DNA of 64,000 nt from Escherichia phage EK5. Numbering within the stretch: the stretch's first letter is position 1; the number at the start of each line of letters is the position of its first letter. The stretch is taken from the sequence record PQ805429.1, one strand, 5' to 3'. The notes beneath the pieces are model-generated. The model worked only from the letters and a program-made list of their open reading frames with translations. It was not told where the DNA came from and did no database searches. Both the position numbers and the translations under genes were made by a program. Positions 2,746-62,639 of this stretch are shown here, one piece after another.

Positions 2746-3402
2746 ATGAATGAACAACTACAAGCAACATTAATCGAAGCTATGGGAAGTGATCGTAGCG
2801 TAGTAAACGCAGCTCGAGTTTCCTTTGGCGTAACCCGTGAAGGTGATTTAAATGAACGTGATGAACGTCTCATCAACTTCCTCGCAAGAGAGAAGCATGT
2901 TACCCCATTCCGACACCCGCAAGTCAGTTTCCGATGCAAAGCACCTATCGCAATTGCGAGACAGTTGGGCAAGCATCAGGTTGGATTCTCGTGGAACGAA
3001 ATGTCCCGGCGGTATAAAGATGGAGCAGTTGAAGTCTTCATCCCTAAAGAGATTTTTGCGAGACCTTCGGACCTCCATGCAGGTTCAGGGGTTCAACTCA
3101 TCGATGGAGAACGAGCTGAAGCATTAATGTTGATTAACGATGCATATGAAGCTTCTCTAGCAGCATATGACAAGTTGATTGAATTTATTGCACCAGAGCA
3201 AGCTCGATTTGTTCTTCCTCAGGGGATGATCACTGAGTGGGTGTGGACTGGTTCTTTGTATGGCTGGTTTGAGTTGTGCCGTCAGCGACTCTCCTCTCAC
3301 GCTCAATATGAAGTTCGAGTGTTTGCTAAATCTCTAGATGAAGAGATGGCTAAACTCTACCCAATCTCGTGGGCAGCTCTGAAGAAAACTTTGGAGAGTT
3401 AA
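2746..3402 (+). CDS. thyX: flavin-dependent thymidylate synthase ThyX-like
   Basis: 218 aa; RHPQVSF...KHQVGFSWNEMSRRY resembles the ThyX RHR...S.RY signature. Confidence 0.6.
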   Translation: MNEQLQATLIEAMGSDRSVVNAARVSFGVTREGDLNERDERLINFLAREKHVTPFRHPQVSFRCKAPIAIARQLGKHQVGFSWNEMSRRYKDGAVEVFIPKEIFARPSDLHAGSGVQLIDGERAEALMLINDAYEASLAAYDKLIEFIAPEQARFVLPQGMITEWVWTGSLYGWFELCRQRLSSHAQYEVRVFAKSLDEEMAKLYPISWAALKKTLES

Positions 3403-3403
3403 A

Positions 3404-3652
3404 ATGGCTAGTAAAAGTATTTGGATTCTGAGTCGTGTTGAAGAGACAGACAGAGGGGAGTACACAGAAGTGCTTTGCTCTTTCATTACATACCCCACAA
3501 AACAACAGCTTGAAGATGCTGGAGTAGAAATAAATCTTTCTCAATCTCTTTTTGATAAAAAGGTTTCCAAGTCAACAGCCCCATTCTTTGGTTATTACTA
3601 CACACTTGATAGTTTGGAGCTACTGATGAATGATTCTTGTTTGGAGAATTAA
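3404..3652 (+). CDS. hypothetical protein
   Basis: 82 aa ORF, RBS GGAGAG upstream. Confidence 0.45.
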   Translation: MASKSIWILSRVEETDRGEYTEVLCSFITYPTKQQLEDAGVEINLSQSLFDKKVSKSTAPFFGYYYTLDSLELLMNDSCLEN

Positions 3653-3786
3653 TGTTGGAAGAAGATGACGATGTGTTCTGCACCAAGTGTGGGATGACAG
3701 TTGATGATGCATATGACCCAAGTGTAGAAATTTGTCCATGTTGCGGAGTATGTGAATATTGCTGTTCCCACAACTCAGAGGATTAG
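3652..3786 (+). CDS. small Cys-rich protein (putative zinc ribbon)
   Basis: 44 aa, CTKCG...CPCCGVCEYCC; start overlaps previous stop (TAATG). Confidence 0.35.
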   Translation: MLEEDDDVFCTKCGMTVDDAYDPSVEICPCCGVCEYCCSHNSED

Positions 3787-3798
3787 CAGGAATTCCTT

Positions 3799-4032
3799 AT
3801 GAAGATAAAACATATTACAGATATTCAGGAGGCATTTAGAATGCTTCCTCGAAGAGAGAAAGATAAGATTAAGAAGCTTATTCAAGTCTATGGTCATACA
3901 TCTGAAGGTGATGTAGATTATATGCCTGCCACTTTTAGAGAATGCGGAATTGCTCGTAATTTCACATTTGATCGTAAAGTGTTTCAGCAATTCGTTGACC
4001 ACTGGAGAAAAGATGGAAAAGAAAGTCTGTAG
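3799..4032 (+). CDS. hypothetical protein
   Basis: 77 aa ORF. Confidence 0.4.
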   Translation: MKIKHITDIQEAFRMLPRREKDKIKKLIQVYGHTSEGDVDYMPATFRECGIARNFTFDRKVFQQFVDHWRKDGKESL

Positions 4033-48627: not shown

Positions 48628-49732
48628 AATTCTTCTCCTCTGAATAAGAGTATAAAGGGCACATCATAAGACCTACCCGTAAAGGCCACCTCACATTAAC
48701 ACCCGTGAGAATACCTGTATTCATTTTCGTAGTCTTCTTCAGAGAAGCTACCGTATTCATCTTCTGTCATACATCCCTCTGATAAAGTTAAGACATAAAG
48801 GGGACGTCATCTTTGATGACTACTTCACATTAAGGCACCCCCATAAAGGCCATGTCACGTTAAGGCCTATCCATCCATGTGCTGTGTTTAAGCTTACCAC
48901 ATTTACTACATCTCCAAGTGGACTTATAAAAGGTGTGAACTCTTTCATCCCCGTAAGCTTTGCGTATCCGATAGTACTCATGATCACATTTGAATTGCTT
49001 AATGATTAACTTAATTTTCCACATAAGTTCTCTTTCAACCTTATATATAAGAGTTTAAAATTCTGATTTGACCGAGTGGGGCTAGCCGCTTCCCGCGCGT
49101 TTCCTAAAAAGGGGGAGTCCTCATTTAAAAAAGGGTTATTGGCAATGCCTTTACCTTCCCTTTCAACGTTCCACCTCTCCCCGTGCCTACTCCCCGTAAT
49201 TATTCCCCCGTGTATACTACCCAATACATTAGCTACCCGTTTATTTAGTACCCCTTTAAAGAGTGAGAGAAAGGCTAGCACTGTATAAACTAGTACAGGC
49301 ACAATCATAACAGGTCTAATAATACCCATAAGTAATAGTCGCAGCTCCCCATAGTTTGAGTGTAAATAGTTTCAATAGTAATGATTATGAGTGCAATAAT
49401 GATGTATGTATTAATTAAGTGGAAAGATTATGTTTCTTTTAATTGTTTCTTTTATTCTTTCCTTTTTCAGCGTACATGAGCGTAGCGAATGGTCTTTGAT
49501 GTTTGAGTTAACTAATTATTTAAGTGGTATATTATTACCGCACTATCTTGCATGTTTCCCCGTGGTCTGTCCTGCGGTTGTTGTATCCCCGTTTGTCCTG
49601 GTCTGTTGGTCTGTTACCCGTAGTGTTATAAAGTAACAATAAGAAGTAAGCTGATTCTCTGAGTATGGAAAGTTTAGCAAATTAAATTCCTTTAGTTTTC
49701 AGTGAGTTATAGGAAAGTTAGAAAATAAATGG

Positions 49733-49760
49733 TTGACAGCCTTTTCCTTTATTATATAGT
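49733..49760 (+). promoter_or_regulatory. sigma70-like promoter
   Basis: TTGACA-16 nt-TATAGT, about 45 nt upstream of ATG 49805. Confidence 0.5.
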
Positions 49761-49804
49761 TGCGATTGTAGTTTGTAGTTTTCATCAACCATAAGGAATA
49801 TCAA

Positions 49805-50677
49805 ATGTCTAAAGTAGCAATTAACCACTTGAACAAAGCAAACGAAAGCCTTTCCTCTTTAGGCTTAACCGTTGGTAGTCCTGATGCGTGGATGGAAAAC
49901 GAAAGTGCACGTAAAGGATTCAAAAACTCAATCATGTTGGCTTGCTTGATCATCAATTCTACTGCGAACGCTTTACAGTGTGAAGATGAAAGCACGTTCA
50001 AAGAGAACGGTTTTACCGATATGCAGGACGCTATTAATTGCTACATTCAGGCTAATTTAGATAGCTGGAATCAGAAAGATTGGCCTGAGTCGTGCCGTGA
50101 TGTGAAAGCTGAATTATCCCGCTTGTCTGTCATGGTTGAAGCATGGAACAAGAAAAACAAGAAACAGCCAATCAAGCCTACTGTTGCAAGTAAGATTATG
50201 AAGTCTGTTAATCTGGCAAGTTATGCACTGGTTGCAGCTATTGGTGTTAGTGCACTGGTCACATCTCTTTCTGATAAGGCTATCGCTAGTCCTACTCCTG
50301 CAACTGATGCCGCTGATGTTTTCGCTAGTTCCATCAATAAGGGTTGGATGATTTGCAACGGTGCGGATAGTGATGGAAGTACTATTGTATTAAAAATGAA
50401 GTTTAGCAACGTAACTAATGATGGCGTTCTCTTTCAGTCTAAGACACTAGACAATCAGCCTAACAATGATCTAGTTCTCAAGCGCACCGATAGTGACTCG
50501 GATATGGTTACATTTGGCACTGTACAACGTTACGAAGACGTTAAAGCTGTAACCAATCTAGTGAGTTATGGTCCGGTTAATGAGTCGATGATCGCCACTA
50601 CCGTTTATAATAACGCTGATAACGCTGTTTATACCGTTCACGTTAATTTAGCCAACTGCATTAAGGCTAGTAAGTAA
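49805..50677 (+). CDS. hypothetical protein with internal TM segment
   Basis: 290 aa; hydrophobic LASYALVAAIGVSALVTSL. Confidence 0.5.
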   Translation: MSKVAINHLNKANESLSSLGLTVGSPDAWMENESARKGFKNSIMLACLIINSTANALQCEDESTFKENGFTDMQDAINCYIQANLDSWNQKDWPESCRDVKAELSRLSVMVEAWNKKNKKQPIKPTVASKIMKSVNLASYALVAAIGVSALVTSLSDKAIASPTPATDAADVFASSINKGWMICNGADSDGSTIVLKMKFSNVTNDGVLFQSKTLDNQPNNDLVLKRTDSDSDMVTFGTVQRYEDVKAVTNLVSYGPVNESMIATTVYNNADNAVYTVHVNLANCIKASK

Positions 50678-57605: not shown

Positions 57606-57831
57606 TATTAAATCTGATTATACAATGCTTCGATTAAATAACATGAAGCCGGGCGTTCTGTTTGAGCGTAAAGAATCCCTTTACATTAGAACCGACACAT
57701 TGTACGCAGACAATTATGTCAACTGTGTTGATGTGGTAACTGGAAAGCTCATGCCTTTTAAACGGGATGAAGTCTGCCAAGTACGTAGTGATCTCCACAT
57801 AACTAACATAGGGGCTAAGGATGAAGATTAA
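57595..57831 (+). CDS. small protein, paralog family member
   Basis: GTG start after AGGAG; shares family pattern with 57821, 58079, 60721, 62146, 62394, 62642. Confidence 0.4.
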   Translation: MKVNIKSDYTMLRLNNMKPGVLFERKESLYIRTDTLYADNYVNCVDVVTGKLMPFKRDEVCQVRSDLHITNIGAKDED

Positions 57832-58078
57832 TCTTGAAGTAAATGAACCGTCTTTGTGTGTTGGTGATCTCAAACTTGGAGATGTATTCCAAATCAGGGA
57901 AACACGAGCAGATTTCTACATGGTTGTTCAGCTATTTACCTCACAGATTGAAGAGACCAAGCCTTCTGATGGTGGTTGTGTCGTCCTTAGTCTAACAAAT
58001 AAGCAAGTCCTTAAGCTCAGCTCGAAAAGCAAGGTTGTTCTTCTTCATGATGTTGTTATTACTAACAAGGGTAAGTGA
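57821..58078 (+). CDS. small protein, paralog family member
   Basis: 85 aa; MKI..., L..GDVF motif. Confidence 0.45.
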   Translation: MKINLEVNEPSLCVGDLKLGDVFQIRETRADFYMVVQLFTSQIEETKPSDGGCVVLSLTNKQVLKLSSKSKVVLLHDVVITNKGK

Positions 58079-58297
58079 ATGGAAATTAAAGTAGTTGATT
58101 ATCCTAAATATGCAAATGCAGAAGACGTTAAAAGTGGTGATGTTTTCTCTTACGATAGACGTTTCTGGCTGATGTTAGAAGATAAAACTCCTGATGGTTT
58201 GTGTAAGGCCGCCGATCTGAACAGTGGTTCTGTTGAAGTCTTCGGTTTATCAACCACTGTTATGCCCCGTCCTGATCTGTGTTTATCCCAAAAGTAA
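58079..58297 (+). CDS. small protein, paralog family member
   Basis: 72 aa; V.SGDVF motif, LNSGSVE. Confidence 0.45.
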   Translation: MEIKVVDYPKYANAEDVKSGDVFSYDRRFWLMLEDKTPDGLCKAADLNSGSVEVFGLSTTVMPRPDLCLSQK

Positions 58298-58408: not shown

Positions 58409-58785
58409 GTGTTAGACTAAAACCTGTCAATTTTCGAAAGACTTTCTGATATGTAGGGGTACATATTGGTTTGGGATTCAGGAGACTTCCTAGGGGTAGG
58501 GAGTCTTCACCAGTTGGAATAAGAGATAGCTCTAGAACCTGAACTCTTAGGCAGAGAGGGTCGGCAATGAGTACGCGGTCAGAATTAGTCTACTGACTAG
58601 AGCTATCCCTTATATTAACTGGCAATAATGCCTCCACTAACAAAGAGAGATAGGTATGAAAGTATCAACCAAACGTATGAACCGCCCTGAACGTATGGAT
58701 GTAGTAGCTAATGGTGCTCTGAAACTGGAAGGCTTTTGGATTCATGCAATGTCAGCCATCCGTAACAAACAAGGCAATTGGACCT

Positions 58786-58995
58786 ATGCCGGTTAAGACA
58801 ACCCATGTGATAGGTATGCGAGAGATCATTCGCATTGCCTTGATGGAACACACAGAACGCAACATTCAACTAACGCAAATCTCTAAGTGTCTTAATTGCT
58901 CAAGAGATGTGGCTAAGGAGTTGATGTTTGCATTCCTGTATAATGCAGAAGACGAAATGCTACAGAATCATCTGATTCGTTGTGTTAGTCAATAA
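58786..58995 (+). CDS. hypothetical protein (possible HTH)
   Basis: Start moved to ATG 58786; terminator follows. Confidence 0.4.
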   Translation: MPVKTTHVIGMREIIRIALMEHTERNIQLTQISKCLNCSRDVAKELMFAFLYNAEDEMLQNHLIRCVSQ

Positions 58996-58999
58996 AGAG

Positions 59000-59029
59000 A
59001 GGCTGCCTTCGGGCGGCCTTTGTTGTTTT
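59000..59029 (+). terminator. rho-independent terminator
   Basis: AGGCTGCC-TTCG-GGCGGCCT followed by TTGTTGTTTT. Confidence 0.7.
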
Positions 59030-59073
59030 AATTAAGGGTCAGCTCTTACTTAAACTAACAAGAGGAAGCTAAA

Positions 59074-59250
59074 ATGTCTAAGCAAACAATCAAACATACG
59101 CAAGCTGGTTACTCTTATGTCAACTCCCCTTGCTGTGGTGCTCGTGTCAATCTGGTTAAGGAAGAGGTTCGTATCGTTCAGCGTGGCGCTACTGTTGTTC
59201 GCTCATGCTGTGTCTGTGGTAATGACATTTTTATCAAAGGTAAAGTATGA
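59074..59250 (+). CDS. small zinc-ribbon-like protein
   Basis: 58 aa; SPCCG...SCCVCG. Confidence 0.35.
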   Translation: MSKQTIKHTQAGYSYVNSPCCGARVNLVKEEVRIVQRGATVVRSCCVCGNDIFIKGKV

Positions 59251-59498
59251 AAAACTTTCAAGCTGCACCGATAACTAAAGTGATCGAAGTTGATGATGTG
59301 ATGATGACTGTTCCTCTGAACACTCGTTACATTGCAATTGACAGGATGGGTTATGTATGGGCTTGGAAGATTAAGCCTAGCTATAACGCACTGTTCGACG
59401 AGTTTGTTTGTACTGGTATTTACAGTCCTACATTCTTGGGTTTATTTGGAGAGTTCGAAGGTCAGTATAAAATCATCACTCTCCCTGCTTGTGCTTGA
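59247..59498 (+). CDS. hypothetical protein
   Basis: 83 aa, ATGA overlap. Confidence 0.4.
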   Translation: MKNFQAAPITKVIEVDDVMMTVPLNTRYIAIDRMGYVWAWKIKPSYNALFDEFVCTGIYSPTFLGLFGEFEGQYKIITLPACA

Positions 59499-59505
59499 GG
59501 TTAAT

Positions 59506-59667
59506 ATGTTCAAGTGGCTAAAGCGTGTCTTTCATTGTCATGATTGGAAGATTATTAATACTCGCCCTCTGGTCTATACAGATTCGGATGGGAACAATGA
59601 CAAGGGCACACGTTACGTTATTCAGTGTAAGGTGTGTGGTGATGTTAGTCATCGTGATGTAATCTAA
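59506..59667 (+). CDS. small Cys/His protein, paralog 1 of 3
   Basis: 53 aa; MFKWLKRVFHCHDW...CKVCG. Confidence 0.4.
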   Translation: MFKWLKRVFHCHDWKIINTRPLVYTDSDGNNDKGTRYVIQCKVCGDVSHRDVI

Positions 59668-59676
59668 GGAATCATT

Positions 59677-59841
59677 ATGATCAAATGGTTCAAACGCTTC
59701 TTTCATTTCCATGAGTGGGAAGATCTTCATACTTATGAACTGACGATCACAAATAAACTTACTGACAGAGAGCGACAAGGGTTGCGTATCTACTCTCGCT
59801 GTAAAGTGTGTGGTCTGCACAAGAAAACAGATCTGATCTAA
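59677..59841 (+). CDS. small Cys/His protein, paralog 2 of 3
   Basis: 54 aa; MIKWFKRFFHFHEW...CKVCG. Confidence 0.4.
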   Translation: MIKWFKRFFHFHEWEDLHTYELTITNKLTDRERQGLRIYSRCKVCGLHKKTDLI

Positions 59842-59849
59842 GGGGTGTT

Positions 59850-60059
59850 ATGTTCTTTCGTAAGAAAAAGCCCGAAGATTCTGGATGTAAACATGAGTGG
59901 GTGATCACTGAGAACCTACATATCACCCACGCTAAAGACACTCCGGTCGAGAGAAAAGAATCTCGTGTATCTCGTATCTGTAAACACTGTTTGAAAATAG
60001 AACAGCATAAAGTTCCCGGTCATATCGGTCACGATGTAGCCATTCGTATCTTTAGTTAA
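59850..60059 (+). CDS. small Cys/His protein, paralog 3 of 3
   Basis: Start moved to ATG 59850; CKHEW...CKHC. Confidence 0.4.
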   Translation: MFFRKKKPEDSGCKHEWVITENLHITHAKDTPVERKESRVSRICKHCLKIEQHKVPGHIGHDVAIRIFS

Positions 60060-60068
60060 ACAAATCTA

Positions 60069-60144
60069 GCACCCTTAGCTCAATGGACAGAGCAGCGACC
60101 TTCTAAGTCGTTGGTTACAGGTTCGAGTCCTGTAGGGTGCACCA
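60069..60144 (+). tRNA. tRNA-Arg (anticodon UCU)
   Basis: 7-bp acceptor stem GCACCCT/AGGGTGC, D-arm GCTC/GAGC, anticodon loop CTTCTAA, T-arm ACAGG-TTCGAGT-CCTGT, discriminator A and encoded CCA. Confidence 0.9.
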
Positions 60145-60163
60145 ATCAACGTAGGAGGTAGTT

Positions 60164-60463
60164 ATGAGTTGGGGTGGTGTAATATCCTTAATCTGTATCT
60201 TCCTTGTCTGTGTGGCCCTTACAGGCTGCGTACAGAGCCGTCCTGATGGATGGTGTGCAGTAGCAGTGGATGGTATTTGTGTATCTCGCTGGCATAAAGG
60301 TGAGAAGGTTCCTTCTGGTGAGATTGATATGCGCTGGAACGGAGCAACCTGCTCTAATGCTAACCCTTCTATCAACGAAGAGAAGTCTACGCCAGACAGT
60401 GTTGTGATTGATACAGCGTTGTGGTGTGGTGGCTCTACAGTTACCACTGGTAAGGAGTGGTAA
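60164..60463 (+). CDS. Cys-rich lipoprotein
   Basis: Signal peptide with lipobox LTGC; strong RBS AGGAGG; four additional Cys in mature part. Confidence 0.55.
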   Translation: MSWGGVISLICIFLVCVALTGCVQSRPDGWCAVAVDGICVSRWHKGEKVPSGEIDMRWNGATCSNANPSINEEKSTPDSVVIDTALWCGGSTVTTGKEW

Positions 60464-60464
60464 C

Positions 60465-60713
60465 ATGACAGCTCATTATTGGAATACAAAGAAGCTCCTT
60501 GAAGAGATGGCTGGAGTTAGTAGAGTACAGCTAATCTCTATGCTTCGAATGGATGCTCGCTCCTTACGCTTCCAAGTAAAGATTGGTAACTTCAGTGATG
60601 GCCTTTATTACACGCTGAAGGAAAGGATTAAGAAGACACACTTCATTATATATGGACTCAAACCGAGAACATATGTTAACTACATGTATTGGGATACATG
60701 CTACGATAATTGA
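60465..60713 (+). CDS. hypothetical protein
   Basis: Start moved to ATG 60465 after AAGGAG. Confidence 0.4.
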   Translation: MTAHYWNTKKLLEEMAGVSRVQLISMLRMDARSLRFQVKIGNFSDGLYYTLKERIKKTHFIIYGLKPRTYVNYMYWDTCYDN

Positions 60714-60720
60714 GGTTATT

Positions 60721-60942
60721 ATGAAACTAGACTCTAAGCAGTCACTTAAAACCGTTGAGCTGTCCAGCCTTCCAAACGGAAGTGTTTTTGGTCATGATAA
60801 ACACTTCTGGATTAAAACAGACATCATAAACGATGGATATATCACCTGTGTCAATCTTTGGAACGGCTCAGTGGATGGTTATCGCCCTAGCGCAAAGGTA
60901 GTCCCTCAACCTGATGCAAAGGCTGTAGGTTTAGTTTATTAG
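60721..60942 (+). CDS. small protein, paralog family member
   Basis: Start moved to ATG 60721; LPNGSVF, NLWNGSVD. Confidence 0.45.
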   Translation: MKLDSKQSLKTVELSSLPNGSVFGHDKHFWIKTDIINDGYITCVNLWNGSVDGYRPSAKVVPQPDAKAVGLVY

Positions 60943-60951
60943 GGAGTATGT

Positions 60952-61125
60952 ATGAGTTGTTTTGGTGGCGGTGAAGTAGATGACGATGATGACATGGAAT
61001 CCAACGGTACATGTCCTGATTGTGGATGTGAGACGTTTGATGGGGTGTCTGTTTATCCTGCCTGTAGTTACTCACCAGTGATCTGTAAAACATGTGGTGA
61101 TCAGCCGTGTGACCAATCTTGTTAA
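60952..61125 (+). CDS. small Cys-rich acidic protein
   Basis: 57 aa; CPDCGC...CKTCGDQPC. Confidence 0.35.
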   Translation: MSCFGGGEVDDDDDMESNGTCPDCGCETFDGVSVYPACSYSPVICKTCGDQPCDQSC

Positions 61126-62145: not shown

Positions 62146-62394
62146 ATGAAGATTACTCACAAGAAAGAAGAAGTGTCCACGGTTGATATCAACTCTCTTC
62201 CTAGTGGAGCAGTATTTAAATTCCCTGAGAGTTCTACTCTCTATGTCAAAGGGTCTGTGTCTGAAAGTCCTAATGTAACCGTTAACTCCGATCGAGCAAT
62301 CACTCTTCGTCTATCTGATGGTAACGTAACAGCCCCTTCTATCTGGTGCCGAGTTGTCCCTGTATCGGCAGAACTTTTGGTGGATAATACATAA
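62146..62394 (+). CDS. small protein, paralog family member
   Basis: 82 aa; LPSGAVF. Confidence 0.45.
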   Translation: MKITHKKEEVSTVDINSLPSGAVFKFPESSTLYVKGSVSESPNVTVNSDRAITLRLSDGNVTAPSIWCRVVPVSAELLVDNT

Positions 62395-62639
62395 TGAAAA
62401 TCATCCCAAAGAAAAAGGATAATACGGTTCGATTGGAAACAATCATTCCCGGAAACCCCTTCGTAGTTCAGCACGGAAGTGCCTCTCCTCAGTATTATAT
62501 GAGGGTTGAAAATGCTTCTGGTAACATCCGTATAGCCAGTGGCTGGGTTCCTGTAGTAAATCTATCCACAGGTGTACTGTCTGTTAAAGGTCTTGATGAT
62601 CAGGTAGAAATGATTCGTATGTCTGTGGTTCAGGAGTGA
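62394..62639 (+). CDS. small protein, paralog family member
   Basis: 81 aa; NLSTGVL. Confidence 0.45.
   Translation: MKIIPKKKDNTVRLETIIPGNPFVVQHGSASPQYYMRVENASGNIRIASGWVPVVNLSTGVLSVKGLDDQVEMIRMSVVQE

Follow-up and report, generated by a model that had tools for sequence, protein, structure and literature searches.

What are the small cysteine- and histidine-bearing proteins encoded just ahead of a tRNA gene in Escherichia phage EK5, are they related to one another, and what might they do for the phage? The question is raised by positions 59074-60059 of a 64,000-nucleotide (nt) stretch of sequence record PQ805429.1 (hereafter the window, to which all coordinates refer), where an original prediction made from the sequence without database searches had described three tandem metal-binding paralogs in an early region. 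Based on conservation across phage genomes, two of these proteins, C and D, belong to a very large, unnamed and phage-restricted family of basic proteins of 50-70 amino acids (aa), of which a third, E, and the product of a gene elsewhere in the window, F, are probably more distant members. The genes that the argument needs, together with the tRNA, are the following.

59074..59250, + strand: gene A, a 58-aa CC...CxxC protein preceded by the Shine-Dalgarno sequence AAGAGGAAG; matches phrog_18461 (E = 7.3e-44); equivalent of phiEco32 gp110
59247..59498, + strand: gene B, 83 aa, without a metal-ligand motif; matches phrog_1972 (E = 1.4e-18); equivalent of phiEco32 gp108
59506..59667, + strand: gene C, 53 aa, His2Cys2 (H10, H12, C41, C44), Shine-Dalgarno sequence GAGG; matches phrog_8294 (E = 8.1e-25)
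59677..59841, + strand: gene D, 54 aa, by alignment a paralog of C (H10, H12, C42, C45), Shine-Dalgarno sequence AAGGA; matches phrog_8294 (E = 1.5e-17)
59850..60059, + strand: gene E, 69 aa (C13, H15, C44, C47); matches phrog_13426 (E = 3.9e-36)
60069..60144, + strand: tRNA-Arg (anticodon TCT), predicted by ARAGORN and by the Rfam tRNA model (71.9 bits), 9 nt 3' of E, at the end of the cluster
48860..49024, - strand: gene F, 54 aa (C13, H15, C38, C41; KCDHEY...CSKCG), found by a motif scan; matches phrog_7696 (E = 6.6e-17)

A nucleotide search with 58500-60700 gave matches of 80-99% identity in 98 phage records, every one of them a phiEco32-like podovirus of E. coli or Shigella in the genus Kuravirus (Gordonclarkvirinae; TH38, Bas91, CHD5UKE1, MN05, SGF2, and phiEco32), and by these matches the source of the window is a phiEco32-like Kuravirus. 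The + strand of the window corresponds to the minus strand of the phiEco32 record. Genes A to E run on one strand into tRNA-Arg(TCT), which adjoins E, so that the cluster lies directly upstream of the tRNA as had been proposed, and the open reading frames (ORFs) had been delimited correctly. Each of the five genes has a Shine-Dalgarno sequence 6-9 nt upstream. When the window genes were compared with orthologues from five other Kuraviruses, the ratio of nonsynonymous to synonymous substitution rates (dN/dS) was 0.04-0.3 for A, 0.06-0.16 for B, ∼0.12 for C, 0.4-0.5 for D (from few substitutions), and 0.09-0.17 for E. Because of these Shine-Dalgarno sequences and dN/dS values of 0.04-0.5, we conclude that A to E are, by their conservation, real genes under purifying selection. 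Other phage records carry the same products as hypothetical proteins (the window proteins and the deposited Kuravirus proteins are 93-100% identical), and MN05, SGF2, and 1-6bf encode proteins that are 100% identical to C. These exact proteins are thus already deposited, and their families are catalogued, without a function.

The small size of these ORFs, and the fact that homologues are unannotated or called in the wrong frame in several database records (for example, at 'gp08' of phage TL), could be taken to mean that they are chance or decaying sequence and that their shared motif is a coincidence. This is extremely improbable and is refuted by the conservation data: in addition to the purifying selection and the Shine-Dalgarno sequences, the motif is present 4 times when about 0.02-0.06 occurrences are expected, homologues are found in Kuravirus, Bruynoghevirus, cyanophages, and phages of Acinetobacter and the Vequintavirinae, and the family extends to 1342 sequence clusters.

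The proteins encoded by C and D are 39% identical (BLASTP E = 8e-13), both match phrog_8294, and they have in common an N-terminal M(F/I)KW(L/F)KR.FH.H(D/E)W block and a C-terminal CKVCG. By this alignment, C and D are true paralogs. The original prediction had assigned the N-terminal block and a CK(V/H)C motif to three ORFs and had considered the cluster to be tandem paralogs; both statements hold for C and D. E has no FKWLKR block, retains only C-K-H-E-W and CKHC, and is probably a distant relative, and the 58-aa product of A is unrelated. Among proteins from metagenomic Kuravirus-like contigs (P0016 and P0017), P0017 has the N terminus of D (MIKWFKRFFHFHEWE) joined to a gp107-like C terminus (CKTCG.ITKRD.I), a hybrid that suggests recombination between paralogs.

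Gene E encodes the metal-ligand framework CxHEW...CKxC that is common to C and D, and it falls in a different PHROG (phrog_13426 versus phrog_8294). Pairwise BLASTP comparisons of E with C and D were marginal (E = 0.008 and 0.001, respectively), and a profile-profile comparison of the E family (7 sequences) with the C/D family (42 sequences) by hhalign aligned 43 columns, in which the four ligands are in register, at a probability of 50% (E = 1.6e-4). Homologues of E are present in 47 of the roughly 98 Kuravirus-type records and in 30 others; among the matches listed, these others are myoviruses of the Vequintavirinae, with 33-50% identity. The homologues that were collected come from Cronobacter CR9, E. 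coli LTH01, Enterobacter F1M1E, Pectobacterium PcCB7V and POP15, and Serratia Kashira, and the family has an additional conserved tail (E.H.V.GHI..A..IF). A scan of viral contigs with E returned only 2 matches. Based on the hhalign match with its ligands in register and on the kin in the Vequintavirinae, E is probably a distant member of the C/D superfamily that was acquired separately rather than by local duplication.

A scan of the six-frame translation of the window for the pattern [CH]xH[DE..][WYF]-x(15-45)-CxxC gave 4 occurrences, compared with 0.02-0.055 expected from 200 shuffles of each kind. The fourth motif-bearing gene, F, had been overlooked in the original prediction; it lies ∼10 kb from the C-E cluster on the opposite strand, has its phiEco32 counterpart at the left end of that genome (coordinates 253-414), and was found in 126 phage records. 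In addition to phrog_7696, F has weaker matches to phrog_4188 and phrog_8294. Because a homologue from Acinetobacter phage ME3 matches both phrog_8294 (7e-17) and phrog_7696 (6e-6), we place F in the same superfamily as C and D. The adjoining interval, 49030-49800, is mostly non-coding and separates the divergent gene F on the minus strand from the first long ORF of the + strand, at 49805. To judge from the phiEco32 coordinates, the terminus of the genome and its early promoter region should fall within this interval.

The extent of the family became apparent with a profile of 33 sequences, which gave 1342 matches at E ≤ 1e-3 (18 of them at E ≤ 1e-10) among 1.84 billion cluster representatives, nearly all of them stand-alone proteins of 44-80 aa; a single-sequence word-index search with C gave only 4 close relatives. 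By tblastn, C-like genes were found in Kuraviruses, Pseudomonas Bruynogheviruses, Synechococcus myoviruses, and Acinetobacter phage ME3. The original prediction had been made to depend on conservation of the Cys and His positions across homologues, and all four are kept in 174 of the 176 collected proteins (95 HxH, 73 CxH, and 6 Cx(2-5)H), a count that is partly circular, as the retrieval profile already held the ligand residues. In the 168 proteins of the HxH and CxH types, a Trp or Tyr follows two residues past the second ligand in 161, a Gly follows the CxxC in 163, and the spacing from His to Cys is 21-35 residues in 166. When 146 sequences were aligned, H12, C41, and C44 were invariant, G45 was conserved in 97%, and position 10 was His in 84, Cys in 57, and Gly in 5.

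Family members have a median isoelectric point (pI) of 9.3, and their conserved Arg and Lys residues cluster at the second knuckle. In some polypeptides, two or three repeats are fused in one chain, and in 13 of 173 relatives an N-terminal transmembrane helix replaces the WLKRLF segment. Outside the Kuraviruses, in unrelated virulent phages, family genes are found in clusters of small ORFs close to genes for ligase, helicase, or primase. In phage TL, the family member (∼2495-2665, + strand of the TL locus) is unannotated, and its frame runs over the 3' part of 'gp08', so that gp08 may be mis-called. A match in LUZ24 spans only residues 3-41 and is inside 'gp12'.

An AlphaFold2 model of C, built from a 33-sequence alignment (predicted local distance difference test (pLDDT) score of 81.8), contains a helix at residues 3-8 and strands at residues 14-25, 31-41, and 47-52. 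In this model, H10 and H12 are just ahead of strand 1 and C41 and C44 lie between strands 2 and 3, which is the topology of a zinc ribbon, and the 8-residue N-terminal helix packs on the sheet with lower confidence. From the strand topology and the ligand order, C is predicted to be a three-stranded zinc ribbon that would bind zinc, and the design of the family is, by its ligand pattern, a His-containing variant of the common zinc ribbon. The earlier description of these proteins as metal-binding is therefore supported by the retained ligands and by the predicted topology, with zinc as the presumed metal.

Searches for a characterized relative returned little. The first Foldseek match of the C model in the PDB, the N-terminal zinc ribbon of NrdR, was not significant (E = 0.18; template modelling (TM) score of 0.53), and the BFVD search returned only uncharacterised phage proteins. 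No window protein had a sequence match above threshold in Pfam, NCBIfam, or the PDB, either singly or as the 146-sequence set or profile. At E ≤ 10, C, D, and E had no match to TFIIS_C, TFS, or Baculo_LEF5_C, and A, C, D, E, and F had none to Lar, Ogr/Delta, or any other named small phage zinc-finger family. Kinship with a DUF1660-like 'C..FGH.W' family was not supported by any Pfam match, and a literature search found no study of these genes and no experimental data for any homologue.

Gene A stands apart from this family. Its homologues are present in 72 phage records, every one of Kuravirus type, in which C20, C21, C45, and C48 are invariant and position 46 is Cys, Tyr, or Pro; because C46 varies, the conserved pattern is CC...CxxC and not the CC...CC.C originally proposed. 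The 58-aa protein had also been thought to precede the three others directly, when in fact the 83-aa gene B, which the original prediction did not mention and whose start overlaps the stop codon of A as ATGA, sits between A and C. An AlphaFold model of A from a shallow alignment (pLDDT 86) has four strands and one helix, with the helix between the two Cys-bearing turns, a fold that differs from that of C. Judged from its homologues and its sequence, A is a separate Kuravirus-specific protein that is unrelated to C, D, and E, and it may bind zinc through the CC...CxxC residues.

The number of family genes at the tRNA varies among close relatives: phiEco32 and 4E8 have one C-type copy, and EK5, Bas91, and CHD5UKE1 have C, D, and E. 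With one to three copies beside the tRNA, the genes are, by this comparison of genomes, accessory. A hot spot of gene gain and loss stretches from gene A to the tRNA. In Bas91, E is separated from the tRNA by a homing endonuclease (locus positions 3095-3517), CHD5UKE1 has ∼450 bp of extra DNA there (locus positions 3281-3729), and both phiEco32 (locus positions 3749-3973) and CHD5UKE1 have an additional 74-aa gene after A.

As originally proposed, the cluster is located in an early region, within a block whose counterpart in phiEco32-type phages is classed among the early genes, is transcribed by the host sigma-70 RNA polymerase, and is the most variable part of the genome, with function almost wholly unassigned (PMC4281155, PMC9965538, PMC8948821). 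By analogy, these genes would also be expressed early in EK5.

Several other elements surround the cluster in this block. A consensus scan placed a terminator-like element 50 nt upstream of A, and a second, larger paralog family of at least six genes (∼70-85 aa) is interleaved with the zinc-ribbon genes:

58998..59021, + strand: putative terminator, a GC-rich hairpin (10-bp stem with 6 GC pairs) followed by a T-run
57625-57831, 57821-58078, 58079-58297, 60721-60942, 62146-62394, and 62394-62639, + strand: members of the second paralog family, identified by their shared pattern

The pattern of this second family, L..G.VF ... [FY][WY].K ... DG ... L..G.V, is also found in phiEco32 gp109. Just 3' of the tRNA, at 60952-61125 on the + strand, lies a gene for an acidic 57-aa protein with nine cysteines (CPDCGC...C...CKTCG..C...C; phrog_13157, 'unknown function'), a further small candidate metal-binding protein that is unrelated to A or to C-F; its Lar match (E = 2.2) is meaningless. 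An Rfam scan of 57-62 kb detected the tRNA and no other RNA, as a 'Plastid-ycf2 5UTR' match at 60069-60142 on the minus strand, antisense to the tRNA, reached 40 bits, short of its gathering score (65.7), and is an artefact of the tRNA-like structure.

What, then, might proteins of this design do? Judged by size, charge, fold, and accessory distribution, they are best explained as early-made, non-enzymatic zinc-ribbon binding modules for host takeover or counter-defence, a reading to which we assign roughly an even chance of being correct. Each protein would fold round one zinc ion, held by [His/Cys]-x-His ahead of the first strand and by Cys-x-x-Cys between the second and the third, to form a three-stranded ribbon with a short N-terminal amphipathic helix as a cap. 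The genes would be transcribed early by the host RNA polymerase, within a long rightward run of small genes, and because the products are too small to be enzymes, they would most likely act stoichiometrically, as binding modules, rather than by catalysis. A conserved basic face (R36, Q/R40, K42, and K48-K50) would contact host nucleic acid or protein, and host takeover or counter-defence would be the result. The original prediction had considered tandem small metal-binding paralogs of an early region to be typical of host-factor inhibitors; inhibition of a host factor or of a defence protein would be one form that such a contact may take, and binding to nucleic acid another. The polypeptides with two or three fused repeats found elsewhere in the family are counted in favour of copies that act together.

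More specific roles fit parts of the same evidence. Each paralog could be an anti-defence protein, such as an inhibitor of restriction-modification (RM) or abortive infection, directed at a different host immune protein, and one target per paralog would explain the variable copy number. Gene copy number and content at the tRNA differ among phages that are >90% identical, and such variation is typical of counter-defence islands. Moreover, E has been exchanged with unrelated Vequintavirinae, a remarkable resistance to RM is reported for the Gordonclarkvirinae, in which neither an inhibitor nor a modification pathway is known (PMC11990801), and there is a precedent in the phage protein Enki (bioRxiv 10.1101/2024.06.14.598830). 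However, Enki is unrelated to this family, no protein here matches Lar or another anti-restriction model, and the BASEL authors prefer DNA modification as the cause of the RM resistance (PMC11990801). We regard an anti-defence role as unlikely. Much the same can be said of a role as DNA- or RNA-binding regulators, in which nucleic acid would be bound by the basic beta-ribbon, as it is by the ribbons of NrdR and of ribosomal and translation factors, with transcription or translation of the phage or the host modulated as a result. The top structural matches in the PDB are to NrdR, whose zinc ribbon binds DNA (41 columns at 24-29% identity, not significant), there are weak matches to the zinc ribbons of TFS, LEF-5_C, and aIF2-beta, and the median pI of 9.3 and the Arg/Lys cluster round the second knuckle are as expected of such a regulator; small phage proteins are commonly basic, however, the hairpin loop is not conserved and is without a TFIIS-like acidic tip, and no repeated operator-like DNA was identified in a search that was not in depth. 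This role is comparably unlikely.

Action at the inner membrane, in superinfection exclusion or in modulation of a membrane complex, with an amphipathic or transmembrane helix as the anchor of the ribbon, is suggested by the 13 of 173 relatives with a clear transmembrane helix in place of WLKRLF and by the hydrophobic, basic, and conserved character of the N-terminal segment. It is nevertheless very unlikely for the EK5 proteins, as 93% of the members, including all copies in the window, have no transmembrane helix, packing of the 8-residue helix on the sheet is predicted at lower confidence, and membrane-protein neighbours were not found. The most far-reaching proposal, that [H/C]xH...CxxC mini-ribbons are a widespread modular toolkit for counter-defence and host takeover, in which C, D, E, and F would have separate targets, each disabling its own host nuclease or immune sensor or docking on RNA polymerase or nucleic acid, and so account for part of the broad and unexplained restriction resistance of the Gordonclarkvirinae, is quite unlikely as it stands.

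Several observations also weigh against the interpretation as host-directed binding modules. Every homologue is 'hypothetical', and PHROGs, Pfam, NCBIfam, the PDB, and BFVD offer no function; no gene neighbour is constant across six unrelated phage groups, and the transmembrane helix in ∼7% of members is a hint of a different, membrane-linked role. In addition, the count of conserved ligands carries the circularity noted above, and the inclusion of E with C and D depends on an hhalign probability of just 50%.

Small zinc-ribbon ORFans are common in the early regions of phages, and the presence of such genes in EK5 is routine by itself. The gain is a cleaner definition of a family in which several PHROG groups and more than 1300 clusters come together under one compact design, [H/C]xH-x-W ... 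CxxCG. This design spans unrelated virulent phages (Kuravirus, Bruynoghevirus, cyanomyoviruses, Acinetobacter phages, and Vequintavirinae) and recurs as multiple copies per genome and as fused repeats, and the family is without a Pfam model. A family that is both common and small is cheap and tractable for functional screens, and the K-12-infecting BASEL Kuraviruses open it to genetics.

How these proteins compare with known systems depends on the level at which the comparison is made. The full-length hidden Markov model (HMM) matches to phrog_8294 (C and D), phrog_13426 (E), phrog_7696 (F), and phrog_18461 (A) are significant (E = 7e-44 to 1.5e-17) and show no difference from the window proteins; all four groups are entries of 'unknown function', so that membership explains no mechanism. 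PHROGs also splits what the profile searches reported here join as one superfamily. At the level of fold, the two-knuckle, three-stranded beta-ribbon topology of the C model is that of TFIIS domain III, archaeal TFS, and the C-terminal domain of baculovirus LEF-5 (PF11792). Acinetobacter phage ME3_243 is the only distant relative to pass the Baculo_LEF5_C gathering score (25.4 versus 24 bits), 5 of the 146 members match this model at E ≤ 0.05, and the match of F to TFS is weak (E = 0.037, at 14.7 bits where the cut-off is 64.75). The family differs from the classical Cys4 transcription ribbons in its first knuckle, which is [H/C]-x-H rather than C-x-x-C, and a TFIIS-like acidic hairpin tip, considered in view of the LEF-5_C and TFS matches, is ruled out because the hairpin loop, columns 24-33 of the 146-sequence alignment, is not conserved and has no dominant residue. 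In NrdR, all four ligands are Cys and the ribbon is followed by an ATP-cone, for which proteins of 53-69 aa are too short; the structural match to NrdR covers the ribbon only and is not significant, and no sequence relationship was found.

In size, the closest comparison is with Enki, a 52-aa protein of a tailless Vibrio phage that its authors predict to hold a zinc ribbon and that inhibits AbiH and a type II retron (bioRxiv 10.1101/2024.06.14.598830). Homology was rejected (hhalign probability of 1%, with only the CxxC turn aligned and a different ligand spacing), and Enki, being unrelated to the family, is a precedent rather than evidence. As a precedent in the same size class, it shows that a ∼50-aa protein with a predicted zinc ribbon can inhibit host defence.
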